Source: Patescibacteria group bacterium
GTDB lineage: Bacteria > Patescibacteriota > Microgenomatia > UBA1400 > CG1-02-47-37
Assembly (NCBI GenBank): GCA_038065055.1
Contig: JBBTRT010000005.1
Location: 2,706-66,705, forward strand
Direction: 5' to 3'
Length of the DNA: 64,000 nt
Each line of letters starts with the position of its first letter. Positions within the stretch are counted from its first letter, which is position 1. The translations under genes were made by a program, and so were the position numbers. Positions 19,505 to 63,202 of this stretch are shown piece after piece. The notes under the pieces were generated by a model. It was not told where the DNA came from and ran no database searches. It was given only the letters and a program-made list of their open reading frames with translations.

Positions 19505-19527
19505 CCTGCGAGGAGAGTCCTTGTTGG
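19505..19527. repeat. REP-like palindrome, degenerate copy (CCTGCGAGGA GAG TCCTTGTTGG)
   Basis: Read directly. It shares 19 nt (AGCCTGCGAGGAGAGTCCT) with the copy at 63083-63101. Confidence 0.7.
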
Positions 19528-19587
19528 CAGGGCTTAAGTTTACTAATCTGATAGACAAAGAACATAAAAAGTTAATATAATAAAAGA

Positions 19588-19872
19588 ATGATGAAAATTG
19601 ATAATAAACAGTATAAGGAAGATATAAAAAAAGAGGAAAACCTTTGGAATAATACAGCCAAAGAAGAACTAAATATATTTCAACCTGATTATAAATTTTA
19701 TCAAAAAACAATACCTTATAAAATATATCGAGATGTTTATGTCAAAAAAATGTTAGAAAAAATCAGTTTTGGAGATAAAGTTCTCGAATTAGGTTGTTAC
19801 AATGGTTGGTTCTCATTAGAAATGGCAAGAAAAGGAGCAATAATTGACGCTTATGATTTATCCTCTAATTAA
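19588..19872 (+). pseudogene. 5' remnant of a class I methyltransferase gene, ending just after motif I/post-I
   Basis: The 94-aa ORF ends ...KVLELGCYNGWFSLEMARKGAIIDAYDLSSN*. The rest of the fold is missing and the surroundings are very AT-rich. Confidence 0.5.
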
Positions 19873-19941
19873 TTAACTAAATTATTGTAGATTAATGAAA
19901 TTAATGTTAACTTTAGAAGAATAGTAAAATTTAATAAATTT

Positions 19942-22767
19942 ATGCCCGCCCTTGTAGGATTCTTAGTAGGATTCTTACTAAAACTTAGTAAAGGATTATT
20001 TTTAATCTTTGGTTTTTTATTCCTTTTTTCTAATCTTCCTCAAGAAGCCTCAGCTGCGACCTTTAATATTGACCCAGGTGACACCACTGGATTAATTAAT
20101 GCAATTAACTTATCAAATTCTAGTCTTGAAAGTGATGTCATTAATCTATCGCCAAATAGTGTTTATGAACTAACATCGATCAATAATGATACTTATTCAA
20201 AAAATGGAATGCCTGTTATTATTTCAGAAATAGTTATTAATGGAAATAATTCAACAATAAAAAGAATCTCAATTGATAGATTCCGTATTTTAGCAATCGT
20301 AGCCCCAGGAAAATTAACTTTAAACAATATTACAATCTCAAATGGTTTTAGCGAAGATCCTTATTATGGTGGAGGCGGAATATTTAATATTAATGGAAAT
20401 CTTATAATTAATAATTCATTTATTTCAAATAATAATTCTCTTATTGGAGGAGGTGCAGGAATATGGGCTGAAAATGGATCCAATACATCAATTTATAAAA
20501 CTAAAATTTCAAATAATAATGGTGGTGGTGGTGAATCAATATCAAGTGGCGGAGCTTTTACTAAAAGAGGAGCGGGAGTGTTTGAAGTTATCGAAAGTAT
20601 TATCAGTAATAATTTTGCCAAGACAATTGGCGGAGCTATTTATTCCAATCATAGCGGTGAAATAATTTTAAGAAATACCGAGATTTCCAATAACTCTGCT
20701 AATAATGAAGGCGGGGCAATATTTGATTATGCAGGATTAATTACAATAGACAGGTCTTGTATCTCAGGAAATTCTTCAATAGCAGTTTCAATACCCGTCG
20801 ATGGTCTCCCAACTGCAATTATTTCTGCTCCAAACAACTACTGGGGTCATGAGAGTGGACCATCAGGAGTCGGTCCGGGTAGCGGCGACTCGATCAGCTC
20901 CAATGTCAATTATTTGCCATTTTTAGCTGACTGTCCGCCACCCCCTTCCCCCTCCCCTTCCCCTTCGCCAAGCCCGGAGCCAAGCATATTGCCGTCGCCG
21001 CTGCCATCGCCCCAACCGACAAAAACTCCCGTAGTAATGCTTCCCGGCTTTGGCGGCAGTTGGAATACTCAAGCGTTAATTTCCGGAGGCGATGAAGGAA
21101 TTTGGAAAAAAACTCCGTTTGTCAAAATCTACGACAACTTAAAACAGACTTTTTTAAACGCTGGCTACACTGAAGGCCAAAATTATTTTGAGCTTTATTA
21201 CGACTGGCGCAAACCACTGGACAACCTCGCCGATCAATTAAAAAACTTTTTGGAAACAACAGTTTTAGCCGGCAAGCCGGAAAACACAAAAATAAACTTT
21301 ATCGGACATAGTATGGGCGGACTAGTTGCCAGAACGTACGGCCAAAAATACGGCATAGATAAAATCAATGAATTAGTTACCGTCGGTTCATCGCATCAAG
21401 GGGCTATCCCCGCCTGGAGACTTTGGTCGGGCGCGGATGTTGACGACCATTGGTCATTTAGCCGGCTTGGCCTGCAACTTTACTTACAGTTGCAAAAAGG
21501 CAGGTTTGATTCGCCGGTTGCCGCGATTCAAGCCTTATCTCCCAGTCTACAGGACCTAACCCCAACCTTTGATTTTGCCAAAAAGAACAATTTGGCTGTG
21601 CCAATTAACACCATGAGTTTTACTAATAATTATCTAGCCGAATTAAATAATGCTTTAACGCCAAACTTGAAAAATATTTTCAATATTGTTTATGGGGAAG
21701 CCGAAAATAACACCGTTGAATGGGTTAATTTGGGAACCAGATCTTTGGCTGACAGGCTGTTGGGCCGGTGGCCGGACGGCAGACCGATTGATTACCTTTT
21801 CACTCCGCAAGGCGATTTAACCGTTTTGGCGAAAAGCGCAATCATAAATGAAGTTGGCTCTATTGCCACAGTCTCCGGCAATCATTCGGAAATTGTGAGC
21901 GAGGCGGACGGAATTCAGGCAATTTTGAACGCATTGGATTTAACACAAGTCGTGCCGTCGACCGCAACCGCAAGCGCCCGCCGCAACCCGCTTTTGTTTT
22001 TCTTTTTACACTCGCCGGCGCAAATTAAAGTTACCTCCGCTGAAGGACTGGAAGCCGGTTTTGGTTCAGCGGCGACTTTACCGGACACAATTTACTCGGA
22101 AGAAGATAAGTTGCTGCTAATTCAAAACGCTTTAAGCGATTATTATCAAACAGAAATAGTCGGGCAAGGTAATGGAGTTTACGGCCTGGAAATCGGCCAA
22201 TTAACTGATGAAAGCGATAACTGGTTCAATATTGAAAATAATATCAATCAAGGCGAATCTGATTTTTTCGAGGTAAACTTAACCCAAGTGAAACCGGCCA
22301 ATCCGCTGGAATTAACAATTTACCAGTTAAATAAAATAAAAAATTCCGCCAGCAGTAAAAAATTAATCAAAAGAATTGAAGCAATTATCAGGAAATTAAA
22401 CCTGCAAAGGCAAAATGGATTGCTGGACATTATTGATGATATTTACAGCCTGGATTATAAAATCAGCGAACTGGATAAGGCAGGTAAATGGCTAATTGAA
22501 ACGATTGAAGAACCCGTTAAAGACAGGTTGAAAATATTAACTAAACTAATAACGGCAAAAGAAATAATAACCAGCGAAAAGTTTTTGGAGTCGATGAAAA
22601 ATAAAATCGATCAAAAAATTAAGAGCGAAAATCCGGAAATTGGAACAAGACTAGAGCTGGCGGAAGAGTATTTGGCTAAAGCGAAGGCTGATTTTGAAAA
22701 GGGGCTTTACCGGCGGGCAAGGGCGGAAAGAAAGATAGTTAAGATAATTTTGCATAAAATATTATAG
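19942..22767 (+). CDS. secreted multidomain protein: signal peptide, right-handed beta-helix with PMP-like GGAI/FxxN repeats, Pro/Ser linker, alpha/beta-hydrolase lipase (LCAT/PGAP1-like), C-terminal coiled coil
   Basis: Signal peptide ...LPQEASA/ATF. Repeats GGGIFNINGN, GGAGIW, GGAIYSN and GGAIFDY. Linker PPPPSPSPSPSPSPEPSILPSPLPSPQP. Lipase features MLPGFGGSW...YDWR...GHSMGGLVAR. The tail is Lys/Glu-rich and helical. Confidence 0.75.
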   Translation: MPALVGFLVGFLLKLSKGLFLIFGFLFLFSNLPQEASAATFNIDPGDTTGLINAINLSNSSLESDVINLSPNSVYELTSINNDTYSKNGMPVIISEIVINGNNSTIKRISIDRFRILAIVAPGKLTLNNITISNGFSEDPYYGGGGIFNINGNLIINNSFISNNNSLIGGGAGIWAENGSNTSIYKTKISNNNGGGGESISSGGAFTKRGAGVFEVIESIISNNFAKTIGGAIYSNHSGEIILRNTEISNNSANNEGGAIFDYAGLITIDRSCISGNSSIAVSIPVDGLPTAIISAPNNYWGHESGPSGVGPGSGDSISSNVNYLPFLADCPPPPSPSPSPSPSPEPSILPSPLPSPQPTKTPVVMLPGFGGSWNTQALISGGDEGIWKKTPFVKIYDNLKQTFLNAGYTEGQNYFELYYDWRKPLDNLADQLKNFLETTVLAGKPENTKINFIGHSMGGLVARTYGQKYGIDKINELVTVGSSHQGAIPAWRLWSGADVDDHWSFSRLGLQLYLQLQKGRFDSPVAAIQALSPSLQDLTPTFDFAKKNNLAVPINTMSFTNNYLAELNNALTPNLKNIFNIVYGEAENNTVEWVNLGTRSLADRLLGRWPDGRPIDYLFTPQGDLTVLAKSAIINEVGSIATVSGNHSEIVSEADGIQAILNALDLTQVVPSTATASARRNPLLFFFLHSPAQIKVTSAEGLEAGFGSAATLPDTIYSEEDKLLLIQNALSDYYQTEIVGQGNGVYGLEIGQLTDESDNWFNIENNINQGESDFFEVNLTQVKPANPLELTIYQLNKIKNSASSKKLIKRIEAIIRKLNLQRQNGLLDIIDDIYSLDYKISELDKAGKWLIETIEEPVKDRLKILTKLITAKEIITSEKFLESMKNKIDQKIKSENPEIGTRLELAEEYLAKAKADFEKGLYRRARAERKIVKIILHKIL

Positions 22768-22819
22768 AGGCAATGGTGGTGAAGGTGATAATGAAGTGGT
22801 AAGTGGTATAATTTATCCA

Positions 22820-23302
22820 ATGCCAGGACAAATTATTCTTATTCATGATAGACCAGACTTTGCCGAAGTCAAAGCAGAGCTTTTAAGCTGGCAACTTGAA
22901 TGCAAAGTAATACCGGTGACTACAGCCAAAGAAGCAATGGAATTAATTTCCAAGGGCTTAGGAAAAGTTGACACGGTAATAGTTCATAAAGACCAGGGGC
23001 AATATTCCAAAGAAGAATATACTGGATCTAATAGAGGGTGGGTTGATGATATCGTTGAGGCAATTCATAAAGAAAATGAAACAGTACGGATAGGAATATT
23101 AAGCGGAGAATTTCCTAACGGGATCGGGCACGTTAAAGAATTAAAAGCGGATTTTTACCTTAGCCCTGAAGACACCGTACGAGAAGAATCATGGTTTTTG
23201 GAGCAATTGCAAAAAGGACCTGTTTCTCCAAAGGAAATTGGGAAAAGAGGGCAAGAGGTAGCGATGCCGTCAGGCCCTTCGGCTGCTGAAAGGCTTTATT
23301 AA
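22820..23302 (+). CDS. receiver (CheY-like) fold protein with degenerate acidic pocket; hypothetical
   Basis: QIILIHDRPDF...VIPVTTAKEAMELI...VDTVIVHKD resembles a receiver beta-alpha pattern, but the N-terminal DD pair is HD. The start was set to ATG 22820, 7 nt after TATAAT (22807-22812). Confidence 0.4.
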   Translation: MPGQIILIHDRPDFAEVKAELLSWQLECKVIPVTTAKEAMELISKGLGKVDTVIVHKDQGQYSKEEYTGSNRGWVDDIVEAIHKENETVRIGILSGEFPNGIGHVKELKADFYLSPEDTVREESWFLEQLQKGPVSPKEIGKRGQEVAMPSGPSAAERLY

Positions 23303-23372
23303 TTTTTTTGGTTAAGATAAATTTTTAAAGCAAGGGGTGGGGCGAGGGCAGAGGCAATTGTGAAAAAAGTGA

Positions 23373-23852: not shown

Positions 23853-23862
23853 AACTGTGTAG

Positions 23863-24336: not shown

Positions 24337-24371
24337 ATGGCATATTTTACCATTTTGCTATAATCTGGGTA

Positions 24372-24800: not shown

Positions 24801-24819
24801 ATTTTGGTATAATAGGCTT

Positions 24820-25605
24820 ATGACTAAAATATTTTTAGATAGCGGGGATCCGCAGGAAACTAAAACGGCTTTGCAGGTGCTGGGAAAACTGGATGGCCAA
24901 ACGACTAATCCCAGCTTGATTGCCAAAAACCCCCAAGCGCAAGGAAAAAAATTTAAAGCCGTAGTGCAGGAAATTTCCCAACTAATCCCCCAGGGTTCGG
25001 TATCAATTGAAGTGTACGCGGATAAGACGACCACAAAAGAACAAATGGTCAGCGAGGGTTTGAAAATGAACAGCTGGATCCCGAACTGCCACATTAAACT
25101 GCCGATTTTTCCGGCCGGGCTGGAAGCGGCGGCTGAACTGGTAAAACAAGGAGTAAACGTGAACATGACTTTGTGTTTCAGTCAAGAACAGGCCGCGGCA
25201 GTCTACGGCGCTACCATGGGAGCGAAAAAAGGCCAGGTGTTTATTTCGCCGTTTATCGGTAGGCTGGATGATAAAGGCATTAAAGGCATGGATTTAATTA
25301 AAAATATTCTGAATATGTATAAAACCGGCGACGGGCACGTGGAGGTGCTAGGGGCCAGCATCCGGTCTTTGTCCCACCTGACTGACAGCCTGGAAATGAA
25401 CGTGGATATTTTGACGGCCCCTTTATCGATTTTAACGGCCTGGCAGAATAAAGAAGCGGTGACTGAACCGGCGACCTTGCTAGGGATTGAGTATGAAACT
25501 CTGGATTTGAACAAACCCTGGCATGAATTTAATCTTGAACATGAATTGACAAATGCGGGAATGGATAAGTTCGCGGCCGACTGGAAAGGGATGATTAAAG
25601 AATAG
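24820..25605 (+). CDS. tal: transaldolase / fructose-6-phosphate aldolase family (short TalC/FSA type)
   Basis: MTKIFLDSGD...GQTTNPSL...CHIKLP...NMTLCFS...FISPFIGRLDD. The start was set to ATG 24820, 6 nt after TGGTATAAT. Confidence 0.85.
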   Translation: MTKIFLDSGDPQETKTALQVLGKLDGQTTNPSLIAKNPQAQGKKFKAVVQEISQLIPQGSVSIEVYADKTTTKEQMVSEGLKMNSWIPNCHIKLPIFPAGLEAAAELVKQGVNVNMTLCFSQEQAAAVYGATMGAKKGQVFISPFIGRLDDKGIKGMDLIKNILNMYKTGDGHVEVLGASIRSLSHLTDSLEMNVDILTAPLSILTAWQNKEAVTEPATLLGIEYETLDLNKPWHEFNLEHELTNAGMDKFAADWKGMIKE

Positions 25606-25679
25606 TGCTCGCGTCTGGATTTGAACCAGAGACCTCTCGAATGTGAATCGAACGCTCTAACCAACTGAGCTACGCGAGC
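25606..25679 (-). tRNA. tRNA-Val (anticodon CAC), 74 nt, no encoded CCA
   Basis: The reverse complement folds as a cloverleaf. Acceptor GCTCGCG/CGCGAGC; D arm GCTC-AGTTGGTTA-GAGC; anticodon arm TTCGA-TTCACAT-TCGAG; variable loop AGGTC; T arm TCTGG-TTCAAAT-CCAGA; discriminator A. Confidence 0.9.
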
Positions 25680-31626: not shown

Positions 31627-32094
31627 ATGATCAATGATCTTAATCCTGAACAGAAAGTTTCTTTAGAAAAAAAACAAAATGGAACCGAAACCATAAAATG
31701 GTGGGAACTTTCTTTACCTGGAGAAACTTTACTTGCCAATGGAGGGGAATTGCCGGAGATTGCCGTTCCAGGTCATGAATCTCCAGTAGAAACAAATTCC
31801 CAATATAATTCTTATACTCTTTTAACAGCTCCAGAGGAACAAGGAAAAATTAGAGTATTGGCTGCTTGTTTCACTGGTCATATCTATTCTGATAAGGATG
31901 TAGGTTATGATCTAACTAGTTTGCATAATGATATTAAGTCAGAGATGGAAAGAAGGGGGTTAAAAAATTATACACTTAGAGAAGTAGTAGCTATTCTAAA
32001 AGATCGCGAATCAGAACTGGAAAAAGTTGGGGTAGAAATAAAACAACTAACAGGCGGCAAAATGAGTGTCGATTATATAAAGATTGATGAATAA
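31627..32094 (+). CDS. hypothetical protein (155 aa), AT-rich island gene
   Basis: Clean ORF with noticeably lower GC than its neighbours. I recognise no family. Confidence 0.5.
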   Translation: MINDLNPEQKVSLEKKQNGTETIKWWELSLPGETLLANGGELPEIAVPGHESPVETNSQYNSYTLLTAPEEQGKIRVLAACFTGHIYSDKDVGYDLTSLHNDIKSEMERRGLKNYTLREVVAILKDRESELEKVGVEIKQLTGGKMSVDYIKIDE

Positions 32095-32098: not shown

Positions 32099-32121
32099 CC
32101 TACAAGGACGGACCTTGTAGG
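32099..32121. repeat. REP-like palindrome (CCTACAAGG ACGGA CCTTGTAGG), perfect 9-bp stem
   Basis: Read directly. It lies 4 nt after the stop of 31627-32094, between convergent genes. Confidence 0.8.
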
Positions 32122-45512: not shown

Positions 45513-46486
45513 CGATTAATTAATTTAATAATCGTACGGGCTAATTTGGCAGAATCGTGGCGCAACAAACTGCGTTTTAAGCTGTCGCTGGTTGGTTTTT
45601 GATAAGGAGTGTTGGCCAGCAATGGTTGGCGGATTACCCGGCTGTCTTCTCCCAAATTATCTTCCACCGAATATTCAGTTTGAGTTTTGTAGGCTTGTAA
45701 AATTACCGGCGGAATCGGTTGATTATTCACAATAATACTGTCAATCTTACGACCGCTGTATTTTTCCAGCTCTTTAATATGGTCCAGGGCGGTAAAATAA
45801 TTAGTTTGGCTATTTAAAGTCATCAGGTTAACAATGTAAACTAATTTGGCTTGGGAACGTTGAAGCGCTGACCGCGACCCCTTGACAACTAAACTGGCAA
45901 TCAAACTGTTAAACAAATCGCCCGGGGCAAAAATAACCAGTTCAGCGGTTTCGATGGCAACTTTTGCCTGAGGATTAATCAAGGCTTGAGGCAAAGTGTA
46001 AAGCTTGACAATCCGTTCATTTTTTTTCAGGCGGTGGACTTCGATTTTGTGTTCGGAAATAATGGTTTGGCCATCAGAATACTCGGCAGCCAGTTTGACC
46101 ATCTGCCGGGAAATAGGCAGAATCGTGCCTTTAAGGCGGAAAAGTTTGGAAATTTGTTCAACAGCGGCCGGTTCACTGCCTAAAATGTCTTCCAAGGCAG
46201 TTAAAAATAAGTTACCCAGGCTGTGGCCCTTAATCCCTTTGCCTTTTTCAAACCGGTAAGTAAAAAGTTTTTGGAATAAGCCGTTTTCTTTTGCCAAGGC
46301 CGCCAAGCACTGGCGGATATCGCCAACCGGTAAAAATCCAAATTCATCCCGCAGGCGGCCGGTTGACCCACCATCGTCAGTGACCGGCACAATGGCGGTT
46401 AAATCGACCGGGTAATTTTTTAAACCGGAAAGCAAGACAAAACTGCCGGTGCCGCCGCCAATGACCACAATTTTTTTTTGTTGCAC
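45509..46486 (-). CDS. YvcK/CofD-family protein (gluconeogenesis factor-like); GTG start
   Basis: VVIGGGTGSFVLLSGLK...VTDDGGSTGRLR. TGGTAAAAT (complement of 46494-46502) lies 7 nt upstream of the GTG. Confidence 0.85.
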   Translation of the reverse strand: MQQKKIVVIGGGTGSFVLLSGLKNYPVDLTAIVPVTDDGGSTGRLRDEFGFLPVGDIRQCLAALAKENGLFQKLFTYRFEKGKGIKGHSLGNLFLTALEDILGSEPAAVEQISKLFRLKGTILPISRQMVKLAAEYSDGQTIISEHKIEVHRLKKNERIVKLYTLPQALINPQAKVAIETAELVIFAPGDLFNSLIASLVVKGSRSALQRSQAKLVYIVNLMTLNSQTNYFTALDHIKELEKYSGRKIDSIIVNNQPIPPVILQAYKTQTEYSVEDNLGEDSRVIRQPLLANTPYQKPTSDSLKRSLLRHDSAKLARTIIKLINR

Positions 46487-46562
46487 AGCGTCTATTTTAC
46501 CATTTGATTGACTTTTAAGAAAATAGGAATAAACTACGAGTGTAATTTACAAAAATATAATT

Positions 46563-47030
46563 ATGAGCTTAAATGAAACCTCGGTTACGTATTCTGAAAA
46601 AATAAATCCTGTTATCAAGGCGGCGGCGGCTTTCGTTCCGGTCAGTGATTATTGGCAATTAAGATTAAGCACAGCAATTCCAACTGATGAAGTAGGGCAA
46701 ATTACCCGGGCAGTCAGGGCAACCAATGAATGGGCTCGGAATTTTGGCAAATCAGAAAAGATTAATCAGCCGATTAAGCCATCTTTAAATCCGATCGTGA
46801 TCGCTTCAAGAAAATTTCTCCAGCGTATCCCTTTGGAGGAATATTTACCGGCCCGGCATGAAGTAATTGTAGAGGCAATTGCATCCAGTAACAAAAGGGT
46901 GGCTTATCTTGAAGAATCAATTGGTTATGATGCTGAACTAGATAAAGCTGAATGTGAAGGGATGGCTCTTTCAAGTGAACTTAGTATGACTACAGCAGCA
47001 ATAAAGGCAGTCAACCAGCCTCCGGCTTGA
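46563..47030 (+). CDS. hypothetical protein (155 aa)
   Basis: Clean ORF. I recognise no family. Confidence 0.5.
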   Translation: MSLNETSVTYSEKINPVIKAAAAFVPVSDYWQLRLSTAIPTDEVGQITRAVRATNEWARNFGKSEKINQPIKPSLNPIVIASRKFLQRIPLEEYLPARHEVIVEAIASSNKRVAYLEESIGYDAELDKAECEGMALSSELSMTTAAIKAVNQPPA

Positions 47031-47035
47031 TTCAA

Positions 47036-47057
47036 CCTGCAGGGCTGTCCTCGTAGG
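47036..47057. repeat. REP-like palindrome, degenerate (CCTGCAGGG CTGT CCTCGTAGG), immediately 5' of the RayT-like gene promoter
   Basis: Read directly. It abuts TATAGT (47060-47065). Confidence 0.7.
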
Positions 47058-47219
47058 TGTATAGTTAAAGTAATGCCGGCAAAAAATAGTCTTAAGAATT
47101 ATTCCCCTGAGGCTTACTACCATGTTTATAATCGCGGAGTTGCCAAACAACCTATTTTTCTTGACGAGCAAGATTTTAAAACCTTTTTATCTTACCTTAA
47201 ATTTTACTTGACTACTCCC

Positions 47220-47246
47220 AACCTTCAAGGACTGTCCTTGAAGGTT
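47220..47246. repeat. REP-like palindrome, perfect 13-bp arms (AACCTTCAAGGAC T GTCCTTGAAGGTT), inside the RayT-like ORF (encodes NLQGLSLKV)
   Basis: Read directly. Confidence 0.85.
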
Positions 47247-47525
47247 GCCCCCTCAAGAAAACTAAAAAACTATACCGATCAAATTAAGCTGCTTGCCTAT
47301 TGTTTAATGCCAAACCACTTTCATTTTTTTATTTTTCAAAAAGAAGCAAATTCAATGACTGAATTCATTAGCTCGATAAGTACAAAATATTCAATGTATT
47401 TTAACAAAAAATACAAATGCGTCGGCCATGTTTTCCAAGGAAGATATAAAGCATTAACGGTAATAAATGAGAATCAGTTTATTTATCTGTCCAAATATAT
47501 CCACCAAAATCCCTTAGATATTTTA

Positions 47526-47548
47526 CCTACAGGGACTGTCCTTGAAGG
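47526..47548. repeat. REP-like palindrome (CCTACAGGGACTGTCCTTGAAGG) inside the RayT-like ORF (encodes PTGTVLEG)
   Basis: Read directly. It is identical over 26 nt to the copy at 47737-47762. Confidence 0.85.
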
Positions 47549-47736
47549 TTATAAATTCTCCAGCTATCAAAATTATCTAGGTTTGTATAATCAGGCTTGG
47601 ATAAATAAGGATGAAATTTTATGCTATTTCAATCAAAATCCAACTAAACAATCTTATAAAGTTTTTGTCGAAGAATCAGATGAAAGAGATTTACCTATGA
47701 TTAAAAATATTACCTTGGACTTCGAATAATAATGCG

Positions 47737-47759
47737 CCTACAGGGACTGTCCTTGAAGG
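47737..47759. repeat. REP-like palindrome (CCTACAGGGACTGTCCTTGAAGG) 3' of the RayT-like gene; it overlaps the last codons and the stop of murA on the other strand
   Basis: Read directly. MurA ends ...NNLQGQSL* and its TAG is the complement of 47738-47740. Confidence 0.85.
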
Positions 47760-49000
47760 TTATTTATTTTAGCACCAAGGGCCTGCAAATGGCCGATAAA
47801 GTTTTCGTAACCCCGGTTAAGATGCTCCACTCCGGTCAACACAGTTTCCCCCCGGGCACACAAGCCGGCTAAAACCAAAGTGGCGCCGGCGCGGATATCC
47901 GGAATCGTTAATTTTTGCCCCTGAAGCTTGGCCGGACCAATAATTTTAATGGATCCGGGCATCTGACTAATCTTGGCACCCATGGCTAGTAGCAGAGGCA
48001 CAAACTGAAACCGGTGAGGAAAAATAGTATCCGTGACCTGTGACTGGCCCTGAAACTGAGTAGCGAGAACTGACCATAGTGGCTGCCAATCAGTCATAAA
48101 GCCTGGGTGCGGAGCGGTCTTAATGTTAACCGCACGTAACGGTTGATGATAGTAAAAACGAATCCCCTCGCTTAAAACTTTAAAACCCGCGCCAATTTCG
48201 GTTAATTTGGTTAAAAAAGCGGTTAAATCTTGTTCCCGGGCATGCTTGACCAGAATATTTCCTTGAGTAATCAAAGCGGCAATGGCATAGGAGACTGCTT
48301 CATTGCGATCCGGCATTACCGAGTAACTGGCTGAACCTAAGTCTTTAACGCCGTTAATAATGATCGTCCGGGGCGCTTGCCTGGTTATTTTGGCGCCCAT
48401 TTGAGTTAAAAAAGCAATTAAGTCATCGACTTCCGGTTCCAAAGCGCAATTTTTAAGGATGGTTTTCCCTCGGGCCAAGACAGCGGCCATAATTAAAGTT
48501 TCTGTGCCGGTGTGGGTAGGCTCGGGAAAAGTATAATTTCCGCCTTTTAAAACAGGACAAGTGGCGTAAATTAATTGGTTTTTGAGCTTAATTTTGGCGC
48601 CTAAGGCCTGCAGTCCGGCAAAGTGCCAGTTTAAGCGGCGCTCCCCGATTTGGTCGCCGCCGGGCAAAGGCATGATTGCCTGCTGAAACCGGGCCAAAAG
48701 CGGAGCTAAAAATAAACTGGAAGCCCGCGAGGCCTGACCCAAACTTTGCGGCACAGTAAAAGACTGAAGGTTATCTGCCTGAAGTTTAAAATAGTTAGCG
48801 TCAGCCTTAACTTGGCCGCCTAGCTGAAGAATAATTTCTTTGACCAACTCAACATCGGCAATGCGGCAAACATTGGTTAAGTTAACTTCCCTATGGCTCA
48901 ACAACGAAGCAATCATCAGTTTAAAAGCAGAGTTTTTGGCACCGCTTAAACTGACCGTGCCGTTTAAACGTTGGCCGCCTTGAATAGTAATTTCAGCCAT
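47738..49000 (-). CDS. murA: UDP-N-acetylglucosamine 1-carboxyvinyltransferase
   Basis: MAEITIQGGQRLNGTVSLSGAKNSAFKLMIASLL; 420 aa. Confidence 0.9.
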   Translation of the reverse strand: MAEITIQGGQRLNGTVSLSGAKNSAFKLMIASLLSHREVNLTNVCRIADVELVKEIILQLGGQVKADANYFKLQADNLQSFTVPQSLGQASRASSLFLAPLLARFQQAIMPLPGGDQIGERRLNWHFAGLQALGAKIKLKNQLIYATCPVLKGGNYTFPEPTHTGTETLIMAAVLARGKTILKNCALEPEVDDLIAFLTQMGAKITRQAPRTIIINGVKDLGSASYSVMPDRNEAVSYAIAALITQGNILVKHAREQDLTAFLTKLTEIGAGFKVLSEGIRFYYHQPLRAVNIKTAPHPGFMTDWQPLWSVLATQFQGQSQVTDTIFPHRFQFVPLLLAMGAKISQMPGSIKIIGPAKLQGQKLTIPDIRAGATLVLAGLCARGETVLTGVEHLNRGYENFIGHLQALGAKINNLQGQSL

Positions 49001-49784: not shown

Positions 49785-51163
49785 AGCCAGTTATTGCCGG
49801 CGCCAAGGGTAATTAAGATATCGCCGGAACGGCAATAGTGTTTGATAAAGGCTAAAGTAGCGGCTTTACCAGGGCAATAATAAACTTGGCGGTGGTGTTT
49901 AGCAACCGAGTTGCTAAAACTTTTACTGGTTAAGCCTAAGTTGTCTTTTTCCCGGGCAGAAGCAAAAATGTCGTTGATCACGACCAGGTCGGCCTGGCTA
50001 AAACTTTGACTAAACTCAGTTAACAAAGCTTTGGTACGGGAATAAGTGTGTGACTGGAAAATAGGAATCAAACGGCGGTCAGGAAACCATTCCCGGGCGG
50101 CTTGCAGAACGGCTTTAATTTCAGTCGGGTGATGAGCATAATCATCATAAAGACTAATTTTCTTAACCTCACTAATTAATTCAAACCGACGCTTAACCCC
50201 GGTAAAAGTTTTTATACCAGCTTGCAATTTTTGGGTTGAGGCCCCTAAATTATAGGCCGTTACTATGGCGGCAGTAGCATTTAAAAGATTGTAATTGCCG
50301 GGCAGAGTTAAAATCATTTCCGGCCAAGTTACGCCTTTGACTTTAAGGGTAAAAAACTGTTTTTTATCGGCCAAATGATGGCTAATAATCTGCCAATCGG
50401 CCAAAGGAGAAAAACCATAAGTGATCACCGGGCGGTTTAAACGGCTGATAAATTGCTTGCAGCGGGGATTATCGATATTAATAATAATAAAGCCATTTTT
50501 AGGAACTGGCTGTAAAAACTTAATAAACGAGTCAAAAACTGAATCTAAAGACGGATAAACATCCGGGTGATCGTATTCCAGATTAGTAATTACTGCCATA
50601 TAAGGAGTTAAATAATGAAACCGGGGAGTTAAATTTTTTAGCGGGTCGGTGATGAATTCATCGGCTTCCGCCACAAAATACGGGGAACGGGAATTAAAGC
50701 GGCCAGGGGCCGGTAAGGAAAAAATCGCGCCGGCGCCAACCGCATAACTGGGCTGAAAGCCGGCCGCAGTTAACAGATGAGCAATCAGGGCCGAAACAGT
50801 TGATTTGCCGCCAACGCCGCTAACCGCCACGACCTGTTTACCGCTGGAAAATAGACCGAGCGCCTGAGCATGGCTTAAAACCGGAATATTTTTAGCTTGA
50901 GCGGCCACCACTTCCGGATTATCACTCCCCTGGTGAGCGCCGGTATAAATAACTAAATCACAATTACGGGGCAAATTTTTTGGGGAAAAACCCAGCTTAA
51001 CTTTCAACTTCCTGGTTTTTAAAACCGCATCGGTAGGAAACACTTCAGCGGTGTCGCTGCCGGAGACTTTTTTACCTAAATCTAAAGCGCACAAAGCCAG
51101 GGCAGTCATACCGACGCCTTTAATCCCGGTAAAATGAATGGTTTTAAGTTTTTTTAAATTCAC
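49739..51163 (-). CDS. murC: UDP-N-acetylmuramate--L-alanine ligase
   Basis: IHFTGIKGVGMTALA and P-loop SGVGGKSTVSA. Confidence 0.9.
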   Translation of the reverse strand: MNLKKLKTIHFTGIKGVGMTALALCALDLGKKVSGSDTAEVFPTDAVLKTRKLKVKLGFSPKNLPRNCDLVIYTGAHQGSDNPEVVAAQAKNIPVLSHAQALGLFSSGKQVVAVSGVGGKSTVSALIAHLLTAAGFQPSYAVGAGAIFSLPAPGRFNSRSPYFVAEADEFITDPLKNLTPRFHYLTPYMAVITNLEYDHPDVYPSLDSVFDSFIKFLQPVPKNGFIIINIDNPRCKQFISRLNRPVITYGFSPLADWQIISHHLADKKQFFTLKVKGVTWPEMILTLPGNYNLLNATAAIVTAYNLGASTQKLQAGIKTFTGVKRRFELISEVKKISLYDDYAHHPTEIKAVLQAAREWFPDRRLIPIFQSHTYSRTKALLTEFSQSFSQADLVVINDIFASAREKDNLGLTSKSFSNSVAKHHRQVYYCPGKAATLAFIKHYCRSGDILITLGAGNNWLWHKEILWTLSKIKS

Positions 51164-52238
51164 CGGCTGATAATGATTGATAAAGAACTAAACCGCTAGC
51201 CAGCAAGGCTTTAGCACCTAAAGTGACGCCCGGCATCACCGAAGAGTTAATTCCCAATTGGCTTCCTTTTGCCAAAATAGCGCCTAGCTTTGACTTGCCG
51301 GGAAGAACCTCTTTTTTGTCAAACCGCATATTGGCCAGCCGAGCGCCGGAGCCTAAATTGCTCCCCCCTTCGATAATGGAATCACCCACATAATTGGTGT
51401 GGAAAAAATTATTCGGGCCAACGTAACTCCGGGCAATTTCCGTGTAATATCCGACCGTAGTACCGGATTCAATGATAGAATCCCGAATCAAACAGTGGTG
51501 GCCGATGATAACTTTGGGGCCAATATAGGAATTAATAATCTGGGCGCCGGGGTAAATCTTGGCGGTTTTATCGATGATAGATTTACCGGTTAATAAACCG
51601 GCAGTTAAATCCAAAATTTGCCAAGGATATTTTAGTTGATAGAATTTGCCGGCGGCTTTAACCAGAAGCGAATTGGTTAATTGATTTAAACCGGCTTCGT
51701 AATCAGCTTTAAGCACGGCAATAAATTCTTCGATTTTAGGAAAATAGTCTAAGACGATTTTTAACCACTCGCTCGGTTCTTTTCCCTCGGCAGGCTTTTC
51801 GATGACCTGCAGGGACTGTCCCTGCAGGCTGAAAAAACCGCCGGTGAGACCGGGATGGCTCTTGATACCGGTAAAAATTACTTTATCAGGAGTAGTTTTT
51901 ATTGCTCGTGAAAATTGCTGAATAATTTTAGGGTCAATCCAGTCATCTCCGTTAACTACTACGGTCGGGCCTACAAGGTCCAACCTTGCAGATAAGACGG
52001 CGCCGGCCATGCCGTTGGGTGCGGGTTGGACGACTATCTTGGCTTTGGGAAAAAGTTTAGCAACTGCAGTTTTGTCTTTAGGATTAACCACGATAATTAT
52101 TTGGCTGGGTTTTAAACCCTGACAATTAGCCACAACATGCTCCAGCAAAGTCTTGCCTAAAAACGGCAATAAAGGCTTACTGGTAACAAGCGGCTGAAAC
52201 CGTTTACCGATGCCGGCGGCTAAAACTAGTAATTGCAT
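51144..52238 (-). CDS. sugar-phosphate nucleotidyltransferase with a C-terminal left-handed beta-helix (GlmU-like)
   Basis: LVLAAGIGKRFQPLVTSKPLLPF N-terminal signature, VIEKP motif and C-terminal hexapeptide-repeat region (IGPKVIIGHHCLIRDSIIESGTTVG...). Confidence 0.75.
   Translation of the reverse strand: MQLLVLAAGIGKRFQPLVTSKPLLPFLGKTLLEHVVANCQGLKPSQIIIVVNPKDKTAVAKLFPKAKIVVQPAPNGMAGAVLSARLDLVGPTVVVNGDDWIDPKIIQQFSRAIKTTPDKVIFTGIKSHPGLTGGFFSLQGQSLQVIEKPAEGKEPSEWLKIVLDYFPKIEEFIAVLKADYEAGLNQLTNSLLVKAAGKFYQLKYPWQILDLTAGLLTGKSIIDKTAKIYPGAQIINSYIGPKVIIGHHCLIRDSIIESGTTVGYYTEIARSYVGPNNFFHTNYVGDSIIEGGSNLGSGARLANMRFDKKEVLPGKSKLGAILAKGSQLGINSSVMPGVTLGAKALLASGLVLYQSLSAGEFKKT
51806..51828. repeat. REP-like palindrome, perfect (CCTGCAGGGAC T GTCCCTGCAGG), in frame inside the GlmU-like gene (encodes SLQGQSLQV)
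   Basis: Read directly. Both arms contain CCTGCAGG. Confidence 0.85.
51970..51992. repeat. possible degenerate REP-like copy (CCTACAAGG TCCAA CCTTGCAGA) in the same gene
   Basis: 7 of 9 stem positions can pair. It resembles the 32099 copy. Confidence 0.35.
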
Positions 52239-53272: not shown

Positions 53273-53334
53273 TAATCTATTGTACTACATTGGCTTTTTT
53301 TATCGAACTGATATAATATCCTATAATTAATTCT

Positions 53335-53877
53335 ATGCTCTATCAAGAACAATTTGCTGATACCAGAGCCTTAATGGGTGAGATTGATAGTTTTCTAACT
53401 CATGTCGAACCATTAAATATTAAGTTAAGTGGTGACGTATTGGTAATTGGTCCGGCACCGGATTTAATTGACTTAGTCGTAGTAGAACCGCAGTTAAATC
53501 GAGTTAAGTCAATTACCATTGTTGATCAAGATTTTAGAGCGGAAAGGGCTGGTTTTCTGAGTATTTTTCAACAATGTCACCCTGATGTTGCTGTAACTTT
53601 AATACAACCTAAGCGATTTCAAGATTTAACCCAAACATTTGACGCAATTATTTTTATAGGCGCGAGCGCTTATTTTCATATATGTAATTCTTATTTAAGC
53701 ATACCTAATCGCCTTAAACCTGGAGGAAAATTCTTCGGAACATGTAATTTCCCTCTTGAAGCGGCAACTGTAAGTTTGACTCAAGATTCAACTATGGAAG
53801 TCATTGTATCTGTGCCAGGTCATCCACGTTGGGAACCTGATTGGACCGGAATTATTATTGAGAAGGCACAACATTAA
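53335..53877 (+). CDS. hypothetical protein with a Rossmann/methyltransferase-like pattern, opposite strand within the dcw cluster
   Basis: VLVIGPAPD, ITIVDQD, FDAIIFIGA and LKPGGKFF. TATAAT (53322-53327) lies 7 nt before the ATG. The 3' end overlaps ftsI by 23 bp. Confidence 0.4.
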   Translation: MLYQEQFADTRALMGEIDSFLTHVEPLNIKLSGDVLVIGPAPDLIDLVVVEPQLNRVKSITIVDQDFRAERAGFLSIFQQCHPDVAVTLIQPKRFQDLTQTFDAIIFIGASAYFHICNSYLSIPNRLKPGGKFFGTCNFPLEAATVSLTQDSTMEVIVSVPGHPRWEPDWTGIIIEKAQH

Positions 53878-55546
53878 AATGATTCAGTAATTCGGCGGCG
53901 ATGTTAAACCACAAAGGGGCAGCAGTTTCCGAGGCCCACTGGGAAGTTTTCGGTTCTTTTAAGGTAACTAGCATCACAAATTTGGGTTTGTCCGCGGGAG
54001 CAAAACCGATAAACGAAGCGTTTGTAACAGTGTCCGCATATTTACCACCGACCGCCACTTGAGCGGTACCGGTTTTACCGGCAATGTTATAACCGGTAAC
54101 ATTGGTCCACTTGGCTTCGCCGTCTTTAACGGCAGCCACCATCATATCAGTCACCTGCTGGGCGGCTTCCTGGCTGATAACCCGGTGGCGGGATTTAAGC
54201 GGCAAAGTAATCGTTTGCCGGTCGCTGATAATTTGATTCACCATTCTCGGCTCAACTAATTCGCCGCCGTTGGCAATCGCGGCCGTTGCCTGAAGCATTT
54301 GCATTCCGGTGGCTAAAAAACCCTGGCCAAAACTGGCAGTCGCCAGATCAACAAAAGTCCACTGTTTATCAGGTTTAAAGGGCGGCACTTGTTCATCCTG
54401 CAAATCAATGTTGGTCGGAGTCGAAAAACCAAATTTTTTAAAATAGTCCAAGAATTTGTCCAGCCCGAGTTTTTGACCCACAAAAACCATTCCAACATTG
54501 TCAGAATGGACAATAATATCAGTCATGGTTTCGTTAGGACGGTACTGATTATCCCAAGTATTAATCAGATATTTATCAATTTTAACCGGACCGTCACAGA
54601 TTTCACAGATCGTATCGGGTTTAATTAAATCTTCATTCATGGCAGCGGCCATAACCACGATTTTAAAAATCGATCCGGGTTCAAAAGCATCGGCAATCAC
54701 CGGATTTAAAAACAATTCCGGCTCGAACTGAGAATATTTAACCGGATCATAAGCCGGCAAAGACGCCATCGCGAGAATCGCGCCGGTAAAGGGGTCCATG
54801 ACTGTGACGGAACCGGACTTAGCGCCATAACGTTCGAGGGCAGCAGCCATCTTTTTTTCGACCATAAATTGCAAACCTTTATCTAAAAAAAGCTTTAACT
54901 TCCGGCCGTCGCGCGGTTCCTGGTTGAAAAACTGGCCAAAAATAATCGGCTGGCTGAAAGCATCGTGTTCCTGACGGAGAATTCCCGGCTGGCCGGCCAA
55001 TTCGGCCTGATAAAAGCCTTCCAAGCCATACACGCCTTTATCTTCTCCTTGATCTCCTTGGCCGACAAAACCAACGAGATGGGCGGCCATTGAGGCCTCT
55101 GGATAAAACCGAAGCTGGTCAGGTTCAAAACTTAAATTTTTCCAGGCTAAACTTTCTAAGGACCATTTTTGTGCCTGGCTGATTTTTTTTGCCAAAGTTA
55201 CCCAGTTAGTTTTAGGATCGGATAAACGATTATAAAGCGCGGCAGAAACCGTTGAGTTTAAAAGCGGGGCTAAAGTATTAGCCGCAGTTTTTAGATCGGT
55301 GTCCGGGTTATTTTTAATAAAAAAAGCATTATAGGCCGGTTGATTGGCCACCAGATAACTGTTGTCACTGGTAAAAATTTCCCCTCTTTTAGCACTTACC
55401 GTAGTAGTGGTTTGCTGTTGGGAACGGGCTAAGGAGAGCAAGTTATCCGCGGCTAACACCTGCCAGTAAAACAGCCGCCCTAATAAAACAATGACCATTA
55501 AGATAAAAAACAGGCGAAGGCTAATTAAGCGCCAATGAATGCTCAT
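53855..55546 (-). CDS. ftsI: class B penicillin-binding protein (FtsI-type transpeptidase)
   Basis: SxxK (GSIFKIV), SxN (HSDNVG), KTG (AGKTGTA) and an N-terminal TM anchor. Confidence 0.9.
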   Translation of the reverse strand: MSIHWRLISLRLFFILMVIVLLGRLFYWQVLAADNLLSLARSQQQTTTTVSAKRGEIFTSDNSYLVANQPAYNAFFIKNNPDTDLKTAANTLAPLLNSTVSAALYNRLSDPKTNWVTLAKKISQAQKWSLESLAWKNLSFEPDQLRFYPEASMAAHLVGFVGQGDQGEDKGVYGLEGFYQAELAGQPGILRQEHDAFSQPIIFGQFFNQEPRDGRKLKLFLDKGLQFMVEKKMAAALERYGAKSGSVTVMDPFTGAILAMASLPAYDPVKYSQFEPELFLNPVIADAFEPGSIFKIVVMAAAMNEDLIKPDTICEICDGPVKIDKYLINTWDNQYRPNETMTDIIVHSDNVGMVFVGQKLGLDKFLDYFKKFGFSTPTNIDLQDEQVPPFKPDKQWTFVDLATASFGQGFLATGMQMLQATAAIANGGELVEPRMVNQIISDRQTITLPLKSRHRVISQEAAQQVTDMMVAAVKDGEAKWTNVTGYNIAGKTGTAQVAVGGKYADTVTNASFIGFAPADKPKFVMLVTLKEPKTSQWASETAAPLWFNIAAELLNHFNVVPSQ

Positions 55547-57153: not shown

Positions 57154-57171
57154 GTGGTATATAATCTAACT

Positions 57172-58026: not shown

Positions 58027-58085
58027 AGTTAATTAGTACCGCGTGTAAAGAAAAAAGTAAATTACCAAAAGTTAGAAAACAGTTA

Positions 58086-58937: not shown

Positions 58938-59012
58938 TTTGGCTATTTTACCACTTACTGGATAAGTTTTATTTCCAATTACAATTAAAATCGCTAAAAC
59001 CCAGAGGCAACT

Positions 59013-60538: not shown

Positions 60539-60545
60539 ATGCCGC

Positions 60546-61340: not shown

Positions 61341-62689
61341 AGTTTCTCCTGAAAATAGTTAACTAATTGATCAATTTTGATTCGCTCCTGTTTCATGGTG
61401 TCCCGGTCGCGGACCGTGACCGCCTTATCTTTTAGGCTATCAAAATCCACGGTAATGCACCAGGGGGTGCCGGCTTCGTCCTGACGGCGGTAGCGCTTGC
61501 CGATGTTACCACCATCATCCCAGGCGGTGGTGAATTTAGGACTTAAGAGTTTAAAAACCTGACGGGCGGCAGTAACTAACTCTGGTTTATTTGGCAATAA
61601 TGGAAAAACAGCGACTTTAAATGGTGCCAAACGGGGGGTTAATTTTAACACCACTCGGTCTTTTTCCTCAGTGTAGGCTTCAGTCAGTAAAACCAGAATT
61701 GAGCGGGATAAGCCAAAAGTCGGTTCGATGACGTGGGGAATGAATTTTTCCTGAGTGTAGGGGTCGGTGTAGCGCAAATCCACGCCACTTTTTTCCATGT
61801 GGTTTTTCAGATCAAAATCAGTCCGGTAAGCACAAGCAAACCACTCTTTAAAACCAAAGGGGAATTCGTATTCTAAATCTTCAGTGCGCTTAGAATAGTG
61901 AGCTAATTCTTTTTGGTCGTGAGCGCGCCACTTTAATTTCTTTTTGTTAACGCCTAAGGAAACAGCAAATTTCTCGATTTCTGATTGCCAGTATTCAAAC
62001 TCTTTTTCCCAGGTTTTAGCGTCAATGTAATATTCAAATTCAGCCAAGTCGAATTCCAGAGTGCGGAAAACCTGCTGGCCTTTGGTGATTTCATTGCGGA
62101 ATACTTTGCCGGATTGGGCCAGGCCAAAAGGCAGCTTGGGAGCAAAAGTATCCAAAATTTGTTTAAAGTCCACAAACATACCCTGGGCGGTCTCCCCTCT
62201 TAAATAGGCAAGGGATTTATTTTCCGGGACAATGCCGATGTGGGTTTCGAAAAGCAAGTTGAATTTTTTGGCTTCGGTCCAGTTAAATTGGCCGCAAGCC
62301 GGGCAAGCAATCTTTTTAGTGGTGATAATTTCGTTTAATTCTGCCAAACTTTTACCTTCGACTTTGGTTTTCAATTTGTCTTCGATCAAGTGATCGGCGC
62401 GGGTACGGGTGTGGCACTGCTTGCATTCAATTAAAGCGTCGGTAAAACTGGAGGTGTGGCCGGAGGCTTCCCAAACTTTGGGGTTCATGAGAACGCTGGT
62501 TTCAAGGCCGTAAATATTTTCCCGGGTGGAAACAAAAAATTCCCACCAGTAATTCCGGAGGTTGCGCAAAAGTTCGACGCCCAAGGGGCCGTAGTCGTAA
62601 GTATTGGCCAGTCCCCCATAAATTTCCGAGCCGGGGAAAATAAACCCGCGGCGCTTAGCCAAGGCGGTCACTTGCTTAAATAAGTCCAT
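61337..62689 (-). CDS. glyQS: glycyl-tRNA synthetase (dimeric class II type)
   Basis: AKRRGFIFPGSEIYGGLANTYDYGPLG and the class II motifs (FRNEITKG..., GLSR...). Confidence 0.9.
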   Translation of the reverse strand: MDLFKQVTALAKRRGFIFPGSEIYGGLANTYDYGPLGVELLRNLRNYWWEFFVSTRENIYGLETSVLMNPKVWEASGHTSSFTDALIECKQCHTRTRADHLIEDKLKTKVEGKSLAELNEIITTKKIACPACGQFNWTEAKKFNLLFETHIGIVPENKSLAYLRGETAQGMFVDFKQILDTFAPKLPFGLAQSGKVFRNEITKGQQVFRTLEFDLAEFEYYIDAKTWEKEFEYWQSEIEKFAVSLGVNKKKLKWRAHDQKELAHYSKRTEDLEYEFPFGFKEWFACAYRTDFDLKNHMEKSGVDLRYTDPYTQEKFIPHVIEPTFGLSRSILVLLTEAYTEEKDRVVLKLTPRLAPFKVAVFPLLPNKPELVTAARQVFKLLSPKFTTAWDDGGNIGKRYRRQDEAGTPWCITVDFDSLKDKAVTVRDRDTMKQERIKIDQLVNYFQEKL

Positions 62690-63041
62690 ATCTGCCGGTA
62701 ACCCTTTGTTTTAAAATTTCAAATTCCTGACGGGTAGGAGTAGTTTCGGCTAAATTGGCAATTGATTGCTGTAAATCCCGACCCATTTTATTCATTCTAA
62801 CTACTAATCTTCGCTCTAACCGTCGTTCAGATTTGCCTAATTCGCTCTTTAAATCGTCTTTTGTGGGAAAACTTTTAAGATCATTTTTCGTGGCGAAATT
62901 TTTCAAGTCGCCTCTCGCAACTAATTTCCTTTGAGTGATTTCTTCACCGATTATTTGCCGAACATCGTCCTTGGTGGCAACACCAACATCTTTTAAAACT
63001 TTGATTAAATCTGTTTTTGTTAAAGCTTTATCTTTTACCAT
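62676..63041 (-). CDS. small coiled-coil protein with repeated (A/P)TK(D/N)DL motifs (DUF1640-like); possibly related (by repeat style) to 57670-58026
   Basis: VATKDDV..FATKNDLKSFPTKDDLKSEL. TAGTAT (complement of 63049-63054) lies 7 nt upstream of the ATG. Confidence 0.55.
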   Translation of the reverse strand: MVKDKALTKTDLIKVLKDVGVATKDDVRQIIGEEITQRKLVARGDLKNFATKNDLKSFPTKDDLKSELGKSERRLERRLVVRMNKMGRDLQQSIANLAETTPTRQEFEILKQRVTGRYGLI

Positions 63042-63080
63042 ATATGTAATACTAACAAATTGAATTAATGAAGTCTATCA

Positions 63081-63111
63081 GTTAGCCTGCGAGGAGAGTC
63101 CTCTTAGGCTA
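63081..63111. repeat. REP-like palindrome (TTAGCCTGCGAGGA GAG TCCTCTTAGGCTAA), degenerate
   Basis: Read directly. Confidence 0.7.
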
Positions 63112-63137
63112 ATAATTACTTCTATCTACATCAAGTA

Positions 63138-63162
63138 CCTGCAAGGAGAGTCCTCGCAGAGG
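63138..63162. repeat. REP-like palindrome (CCTGCAAGGA GAG TCCTCGCAGAGG), degenerate with a 1-nt bulge
   Basis: Read directly. Confidence 0.6.
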
Positions 63163-63168
63163 TTCACA

Positions 63169-63202
63169 ACTACGAGGTTGGACCTTGTAGGTTACTTGTA
63201 GG
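63169..63202. repeat. REP-like palindrome (ACTACGAGG TTGGA CCTTGTAGG) plus a duplicated right half-site CTTGTAGG
   Basis: Read directly. Confidence 0.6.

Follow-up and report, generated by a model that had tools for sequence, protein, structure and literature searches.

The window analysed here is a stretch of 64,000 nt from contig JBBTRT010000005.1 of a Patescibacteria group bacterium (Microgenomates; close to Candidatus Beckwithbacteria, to judge by the names of homologs); the identical window sequence is also present in groundwater metagenomes. It contains a family of short palindromes together with a gene for a protein similar to RayT, the transposase linked to repetitive extragenic palindromic (REP) elements (REP-associated tyrosine transposase, RAYT). 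With a probability of about 0.8, these palindromes represent REP-type hairpins belonging to a REPtron-like unit, in which a domesticated Y1 HUH gene of a Microgenomates-type clade is accompanied by its own cognate hairpin. Four copies belong to the gene: one is located upstream, two are placed in frame inside the coding sequence and one is located downstream. In 79 related loci the sequence of the palindrome changes together with the gene. The tie between a REP-type family and a RayT-like gene, as put forward in the original prediction, is supported by the Y1_Tnp domain of the protein, its predicted fold similarity to structure 4ER8, the flanking palindromes and the co-variation across the 79 loci.

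Features of the RayT-like locus:

47073–47729, plus strand: gene of the RayT-like Y1 HUH transposase (218 aa); HUH motif at aa 82–84 (HFH), catalytic Tyr142 (SKYIHQNP)
47036–47057: upstream flanking palindrome, subfamily A, 15 nt before the ATG; −4.3 kcal/mol
47060–47065, plus strand: −10-like box TATAGT, 7 nt before the ATG of the RayT-like gene
47220–47246: internal palindrome 1 (core 47222–47244), in frame, aa 50–58 NLQGLSLKV; 13-bp stem, −12.8 kcal/mol
47526–47548: internal palindrome 2, in frame, aa 152–159 PTGTVLEG, directly after the helix of the catalytic Tyr
47737–47759: downstream flanking palindrome, 8 nt after the RayT stop; forms the end of murA (LQGQSL and TAG)

Internal palindrome 2 and the downstream copy share 27 identical nucleotides. 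The downstream copy also forms the 3' end of the convergent murA (47738–49000, minus strand), namely its six final codons and its TAG stop; murA orthologs end with LGAKI(K/R/E)RI(N/G) and lack the LQGQSL tail.

In a scan of species-representative genomes 236 relatives came up, and 79 loci were kept for comparison. Wherever these carry an organism name, it points to a lineage of Microgenomates type (Beckwith-, Collier-, Gottesman-, Woese- and Roizmanbacteria), and many record titles are unspecific or plainly incorrect (“uncultured Pseudomonadales”, “uncultured Gammaproteobacteria”). Hairpins occur upstream of the gene in 77/79 loci (mostly 8–30 nt before the ATG), downstream in 72/79, at internal site 1 in 58/79 and at internal site 2 in 54/79. 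The hairpin at site 1 agrees with a flanking one in 52 of the 79 loci and that at site 2 in 51. Within a locus the 19-nt cores have a mean identity of 0.89 (median 0.95; 0.88 for the upstream core against the downstream one), while between loci the identity at the same site is 0.59–0.69, and none of 300 permutations reached the observed within-locus value. Examples of such lineage-specific cores are GGACTGTCC, GGTCCAACC, GGAGAGTCC, GGCCAGGCC, GGATCATCC, GGTAGAGTACC and GGGGATCAACCCC. At internal site 2 compensatory double changes affect 7 of the 11 stem pairs (64 cells vs 25.8 ± 4.8 in shuffles, with 0/500 shuffles as high). Both internal positions are kept throughout the clade, from Beckwithbacteria to Woesebacteria and Gottesmanbacteria. 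Site 1 is lost in ~9/79 loci with the gene retained; in some homologs its absence appears as a gap of 3 codons with the rest kept.

The same arrangement is seen in the ortholog at locus L005 (82% identity), which has palindromes at the same four positions and lies between cofD and murA in a cell-wall gene cluster, so that the order cofD/rayT/murA is retained. One stem pair of its hairpins is G-C where the window has T-A, and the central loop base is flipped. Many genomes carry three to five RayT-like paralogs with 43–74% identity within the same genome (51 pairs). Each paralog possesses its own hairpin variant, which differs between paralogs as well as between species.

Some loci deserve separate mention. 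At L009, L010 (site 2) and P0065 the codons of the right arm are tandemly repeated (LEGLEG, LEGLEGLEG), that is, the arm is duplicated inside the coding sequence. An apparent truncated second copy at L021 turned out to be a run of N in the stored record and was discarded. A truncated RayT-like pseudogene at L026 (11759–12247) starts exactly at the site-1 palindrome with the first ~47 codons missing; its sequence is consistent with a deletion or rearrangement having its endpoint at the palindrome.

RayT-like enzyme and its gene

The RayT-like protein passes the Pfam threshold for Y1_Tnp (46.4 bits vs cut-off 23), and residues H82, H84 and Y142 are invariant among its homologs (alignment A1). 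One homolog bears the JGI name “REP element-mobilizing transposase RayT”. The AlphaFold (AF2) model of the protein has a mean predicted local distance difference test (pLDDT) score of 76.9. Its best match in PDB is 4ER8 (E 2.6e-5, target-normalised TM-score 0.62), the structure of E. coli RAYT bound to a REP hairpin, and the next fold matches are the structures of ISDra2 and IS608 TnpA. The protein has a C-terminal extension of ~60 aa. As judged from these sequence and model data, the product of 47073–47729 is a Y1 HUH transposase of RayT type and would possess the corresponding DNA-cutting activity.

The model contains two internal low-confidence loops with pLDDT <50, at aa 53–57 and aa 149–160. 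Both palindrome-encoded segments coincide with these loops, which are predicted to be disordered and are situated on either side of the HUH strand and the helix of the catalytic Tyr.

Constraint on the palindromes and the promoter region

The peptides encoded by the internal palindromes follow the DNA sequence: LQGQSL occurs together with TGTVLEG, LQGPTL with TRLDLEG and KLQVEYLKL with TSSRVLEV. The codon phase of site 1 is constant (59/60 loci). Site 2 is read in two phases, which belong to different clades (39 vs 17 loci). With symmetric scoring, no sense-strand excess of G-T over A-C mispairs was detected at any of the four positions. A role of mRNA structure had been considered on the basis of an initial G-T excess, which was an artefact of scoring and vanished once the scoring was made symmetric. 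The differing frames, the lack of strand bias and the compensatory changes in the stem point together to a constraint on a symmetric DNA element. The comparison of loci therefore indicates that the constraint acts on DNA and neither on protein nor on mRNA, with the encoded peptide as a passenger.

A TATAnT box ending 5–11 nt (mostly 6–7) before the ATG is present in 46/79 loci vs 3.9% of 4,413 control ATGs. In the window this is the TATAGT box listed above, which the upstream palindrome abuts; its assignment rests on the conservation across loci. It is not a canonical extended −10 element, as TG directly abuts the hexamer, and a simple sigma-70 scan left the promoter of the RayT-like gene unflagged, with no −35 match. 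The distance of 7 nt between the box and the ATG implies a leaderless or near-leaderless transcript. If so, the upstream palindrome would lie in the spacer/−35 zone, an operator-like position.

Palindromes in the window and dispersed copies

The pattern CCTRCARGGANNNTCCYTGYAGG with ≤3 mismatches matches 9 sites of the window (19505, 32099, 47222, 47526, 47737, 51806, 51970, 63086 and 63138) vs 0.00 expected from 100 dinucleotide-preserving shuffles. Two further copies are missed by the pattern and are present: 47036–47057, which is CCTGCAGGGCTGTCCTCGTAGG and has a loop shorter by 1 base, and 63169–63191, which is ACTACGAGGTTGGACCTTGTAGG. The eleven palindromes and the half-site listed originally are thus all found in their places, and an additional isolated half-site, CCTTGTAGG at 19950–19958, joins them. 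All 11 palindromes fold as hairpins of single-stranded DNA with free energies from −3.9 to −12.8 kcal/mol. Four of them accompany the RayT-like gene, 2 are in a glmU-like gene and 5 are intergenic. What the earlier list had not mentioned is that 47222 and 47526 are inside the RayT-like coding sequence, that 51806 and 51970 are inside the glmU-like gene, and that murA takes its six final codons and its TAG stop from the 47737 copy.

The division into at least two subfamilies holds as well, and the subfamilies are as described before: A (GGACTGTCC / GGGACTGTCCC; 47036, 47222, 47526, 47737 and 51806), B (GAGGAGAGTCCTC; 19505, 63086 and 63138) and C (AAGG-ACGGA/TTGGA/TCCAA-CCTT; 32099, 51970 and 63169). 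Within the window the RayT-like gene has a link to subfamily A only. For subfamilies B and C, matching hairpins are those that accompany RayT paralogs of other genomes, so that these two probably belong to RayT paralogs beyond the window. The copies away from the RayT-like gene, with their half-sites, are the following.

19505–19527: subfamily B copy between divergent open reading frames (ORFs) 18517–19476 (minus strand) and 19588–19872 (plus strand); −6.0 kcal/mol
19950–19958: isolated half-site CCTTGTAGG at the 5' end of ORF 19942–22767
32099–32121: subfamily C copy, 9-bp stem without mismatch, between convergent ORFs; begins 5 nt downstream of the stop codon of ORF 31627–32094; −8.8 kcal/mol
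51806–51828: subfamily A copy, in frame in the glmU-like gene 51144–52238 (minus strand), aa 137–145 SLQGQSLQV
51970–51992: copy of subfamily C, stem weaker, likewise in frame in the glmU-like gene, aa 83–90 SARLDLVG
63081–63111: subfamily B copy with an extended stem (core 63086–63108), in the 350-nt spacer between recO and ORF 62676–63041; −7.1 kcal/mol
63138–63162: subfamily B copy (core 63138–63160), loop orientation as in the 63086 copy
63169–63191: subfamily C copy; −5.6 kcal/mol
63195–63202: duplicated right arm CTTGTAGG (half-site), 3 nt after the 63169 copy

The cluster 63081–63202 was considered as a possible trace of a degraded RayT gene, which was rejected: its spacings of 52 and 31 nt do not fit the 186/304/211 nt pattern of the gene. 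The orientation of the loop relative to the gene was also tried as a signal. It is mixed across loci and uninformative, because in many variants it depends on one central base.

At the family level, the scan around the 79 genes gave 205 matches in ~74 kb of gene zones. The flanks of these genes contain 47 matches in 1,037 kb (0.45 per 10 kb) vs 9 in shuffled sequence, and the window has 7 copies away from the RayT-like gene in 63 kb. The 15-mer core of a locus occurs in its own flanks at 0.13 per 10 kb vs 0.009 per 10 kb for foreign cores. Among the dispersed copies, 13/22 match a sampled RayT paralog of the same genome, some of them on another contig. A palindrome-anchored metagenome scan with one subfamily found at least 106 sites in at least 80 loci, of which at least 31 are in RayT gene zones and at least 75 elsewhere, a few high-GC matches being unrelated repeats. 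Full CCT...AGG copies away from RayT, among the matches listed (n=52), are inside ORFs in 27 cases and non-coding or at ORF ends in 25. The family is truly dispersed, has a low copy number and includes an unusual share of intragenic copies. The palindrome recurs within and between metagenome contigs (L132 846 and 3186, L121 583, L150 1584) in a setting where the 15 nt on either side are identical. These copies vary at nothing but the central loop base, which is A or T; in a perfect palindrome such an A/T swap is equivalent to inversion of the element.

The intragenic copies are nearly neutral with respect to protein length. The residue-block test was applied to five of them: four add no residues and the fifth, in RadA, has 2 aa extra in comparison with the solved homolog. 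In the glmU-like protein no residues are added relative to the solved homolog (5z09/2ggo), the solved chain being even 2 residues longer at this place. The sequence in SOD is DLQGLSLQE vs native DLQNKSLEE, in IscU LQGQSLKAV vs VKGKSLDEA and in RecG PPSRTVLEGA vs FPKTFYHLEKA, in each case with no gap. Both sites of the glmU-like gene are occupied in the window as well as in L005 with different subfamily cores and unchanged length: L005 has a subfamily-B-like palindrome (GCTGCGAGTAAAGTCCTCGCAGG) at the position of window 51970 and a palindrome with a different core at that of 51806. Length-neutral copies on look-alike native peptides, together with this switching of variants, speak for overwriting rather than insertion. 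The alignments thus suggest that copies arise and turn over by overwriting sequences which were already repeat-like. Duplications of a neighbouring arm, such as that at 63195–63202, occur also in L088 and L159 and may be related to the overwriting.

Other features of the window can be summarized as follows. Rfam found one tRNA in the window and no match to the palindromes; this tRNA-Val(CAC) (25605–25679, minus strand) is the only match of both Rfam and ARAGORN. ORF 19588–19872 (94 aa) aligns with class I methyltransferase models in their N-terminal part only and may be a gene fragment. ORF 53335–53877 (plus strand; 53295–53892) encodes a hypothetical protein of 180 aa within the minus-strand mur/dcw operon and is found neither in the related strain L097 nor in the syntenic stretch of L005. 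Another palindrome family, unrelated to the first, is represented by CTAACACACCCGGGGTGTTAG, which occurs twice (1894–1918 and 2180–2202) and brackets a small Cys-rich ORF at ~1961–2170 (plus strand), and by CTATCACACACCAGGAGTGTGATAG at 17699–17723 within ORF 17023–17943 (minus strand). Its core pattern has 6 matches counting both strands vs 0.39 expected. Directly after the second copy, at 2200–2230, two tandem units AGAGTGTTA are followed by two AGAGTTA units, which resemble repeated half-arms.

Known systems, alternative explanations and significance

In 2011, Bertels and Rainey reportedly described genomes with several RAYTs, each paired with a REP class of its own, a feature that the present system shares. 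The closest of the REPtrons to the present unit is group 3 of S. maltophilia (Sm), with which it shares a Y1 HUH gene flanked by short cognate hairpins. The repeat of that group, REPSm, is 23 nt long with an 8-bp perfect stem and a 3-nt loop (PMC8266576), and the repeat described here is likewise of 23 nt with a perfect stem. RAYTs are inherited vertically without recent duplicates (PMC5581495); the kept synteny and the diverged paralogs seen here would agree with such inheritance, although one close strain lacks the cassette (see below). The differences from REPtrons concern the host, since no report of REP/RAYT in Patescibacteria was found in the literature searched; the protein, which stays below the NCBIfam equivalog cut-off and has the C-terminal extension; the two extra cognate copies in frame inside the gene; the G[T/C/A]AG sequence, which is in the stem here and is a 5' tag in REPtrons; and the low number of dispersed copies without REPIN doublets or bacterial interspersed mosaic elements (BIME). 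In the REPtrons Ma and Mb of Marinomonas sp. MWYL1 the REPs are concentrated next to the tnpA-REP gene (PMC8266576), and here too the repeats are gathered near the enzyme gene and not evenly spread. The Marinomonas case was read as a recent arrival, whereas the present arrangement is conserved in a class-level clade and includes copies within the coding sequence.

Intragenic REPs are on record, as are REPs that overlap either end (5' or 3') of a RAYT gene; intragenic palindromic repeats are known in functional genes, including those of DNA repair, and the insertions described add 20 to 30 aa (dimers, grouped) and up to 82 aa (clusters) (PMC3733652). Rickettsia palindromic elements (RPE) and intragenic REPs are similar to the copies described here in being palindromes in frame inside functional genes. 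They differ in that the single 23-nt copies of the present family add essentially no length and overlie look-alike peptides. No description of copies inside a RAYT coding sequence which co-vary with the flanking ones was found in the literature searched.

A mechanism can be proposed by analogy. Like E. coli TnpA-REP and the IS200/IS605 transposases, each enzyme would bind its cognate hairpin in single-stranded DNA and cut and rejoin the strand there, and this activity would generate the dispersed copies and keep the copies of one lineage alike. Replacement of proto-sites that resemble a hairpin would be a likelier way of spreading than plain insertion. Through the copies inside the gene and close to its promoter the enzyme may also act back on that gene, with autoregulation as one example; this is the least certain step.

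It is possible, although on the unlikely side, that the internal and intragenic copies are passive: old insertions in permissive loops, kept palindromic by quasipalindrome correction through template switching or by biased short-patch conversion, with the link between the flanking REPs and RayT still valid. The encoded segments do fall into predicted disordered loops, site 1 is lost without loss of the gene, and intragenic copies are found in many unrelated housekeeping genes. Correction of a single hairpin, however, cannot give four separate copies the same new loop and inner stem, and repeats of 23 nt are short for RecA-dependent conversion. The retention of both positions from Beckwithbacteria to Woesebacteria and Gottesmanbacteria argues in the same direction.

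An autonomous IS200/IS605-type element, in which the gene and two flanking hairpins move as a unit and the dispersed palindromes are solo ends or footprints, is improbable. IS200/IS605 enzymes recognise subterminal hairpins as single-stranded DNA, and those of IS608 and ISDra2 have the same fold and catalytic motifs as the RayT-like protein. Such an element would be expected to encode a Y1 transposase between two hairpins, to have more than one gene copy in a genome and to be present or absent as a whole cassette between strains with 95–99.9% identical flanks, and all of this is observed. Its ends, however, are distinct left and right ones and imperfect, while both flanks here carry the same near-perfect palindrome. 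No identical gene copies were found: the exact RayT-like protein occurs in a single genomic context without near-identical paralogs, which argues against an active insertion sequence, and paralogs are at most 74% identical. The synteny is kept in the 82% ortholog, the left edge of the strain-specific gap (described below) is in the 5' end of cofD and off the palindrome, and the internal copies would be left unexplained. The gene appears instead to be domesticated, as indicated by its syntenic ortholog and by the divergence of the paralogs within a genome.

A regulatory or structural function for the host, with the palindromes stabilising RNA 3' ends, terminating transcripts or being bound by a different DNA-binding protein and lying near the transposase gene by coincidence, is very unlikely. 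Some intergenic copies do stand just after stop codons (32099; 47737 for both convergent genes), and one copy was flagged as terminator-like. This single match in the terminator scan of 46500–47900 compares with 1.6 expected, and most copies lack the T-run that would give the GC-rich hairpin plus U-tract of an intrinsic terminator. Nor do the other data support the role in RNA 3'-end stabilisation or termination suggested initially: the mispairs are balanced, the upstream copies are located at promoters and precede the probable transcription start, and about half of the dispersed copies are intragenic. Moreover, four copies per gene, two of them within the coding sequence, and the co-variation of the hairpin with the transposase lineage would not be expected of host elements.

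A drive similar to that of uptake sequences, where a motif favoured by DNA uptake or recombination accrues by point mutation in compatible codons, is hardly credible: length-neutral intragenic copies on look-alike peptides in preferred frames are indeed reminiscent of the uptake sequences USS (Haemophilus) and DUS (Neisseria), but a genome has several motifs, with one transposase paralog for each, the gene itself gathers four copies, and the density is roughly a twentieth of the ~1 per kb of USS.

Several observations weigh against the assignment of the palindromes to a REPtron-like unit. The score of the RayT-like protein with the NCBIfam equivalog NF047646 (REP_Tyr_transpos) is 40.6 bits vs cut-off 80, with a match restricted to aa 68–148, and a sequence profile of the family had no match among PDB chains at E≤0.01. 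The G[T/C/A]AG sequence of the window family is base-paired within the stem (CCTTGTAGG, CCCTGCAGG, CCTTGAAGG) and does not form an unpaired 5' GTAG tag; literal GTAG or CTAC is present in some window copies only. REPIN/BIME doublets were looked for in the window and none were seen, the orientation often depending on a single central base. The REPIN-type arrangement anticipated in the original prediction is therefore missing: the sole cluster, 63086–63191, consists of two B copies with the same loop orientation and one C copy. The dispersed copies are far rarer than classical REPs, the genome-wide copy number is extrapolated from the 64 kb window and the 20-kb flanks, and the metagenome matches include the high-GC repeats mentioned above. 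Because the hairpins of the related loci had to exceed a score threshold, their percentage of paired positions is inflated. That the RayT-like enzyme binds and cleaves the hairpins and transfers strands is inferred by us, and the internal copies could be tolerated passengers.

The strain comparison belongs to the same group of observations. The related strain L097 (Hainich H51 contig) lacks the segment corresponding to window 46475–47764, which comprises a 155-aa hypothetical ORF and the entire RayT cassette, and its murA stop overlaps the cofD start (ATGA). Flank identity is 99.86% at one side of the gap and 94.6% at the other. Synteny and diverged paralogs would be in line with vertical inheritance, yet a close strain has no cassette, so that the RayT-like gene is not strictly fixed. 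As the left edge of the gap is in the 5' end of cofD and not at a palindrome, the gap looks like a loss or recombinational replacement rather than a clean excision, and the drop of identity across the junction suggests a recombination breakpoint.

In view of the equivalog score, the lack of REPIN doublets in the window, the G[T/C/A]AG placed in the stem and the low density of copies, the system is regarded as a variant of the REP/RAYT kind rather than a standard member of it.

With the REPtron-like assignment of the palindromes, the range of REP/RAYT systems would come to include the small-genome bacteria of the Candidate Phyla Radiation, a group not mentioned in the REP/RAYT literature found; the search for papers naming Patescibacteria or the candidate phyla radiation in this context returned no relevant one. 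Small genomes leave little intergenic space for repeats, and the copies visibly rewrite a few residues of essential proteins. The many diverged enzyme–hairpin pairs would make specificity determinants readable from protein–DNA covariation. The switching of variants without length change and the look-alike targets point to replacement at proto-sites. It is proposed tentatively, and considered by us as rather doubtful, that the hairpins spread in this way, with the enzyme, or a conversion dependent on it, overwriting arm-like sequences in its own loops and in housekeeping genes. If this is true, each enzyme lineage would have selection-protected master copies of its own substrate within the coding sequence, and gene and substrate would make up a self-referential unit. 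The enzyme would then rewrite short peptides in host proteins, and this would provide a handle on how REPs disseminate.

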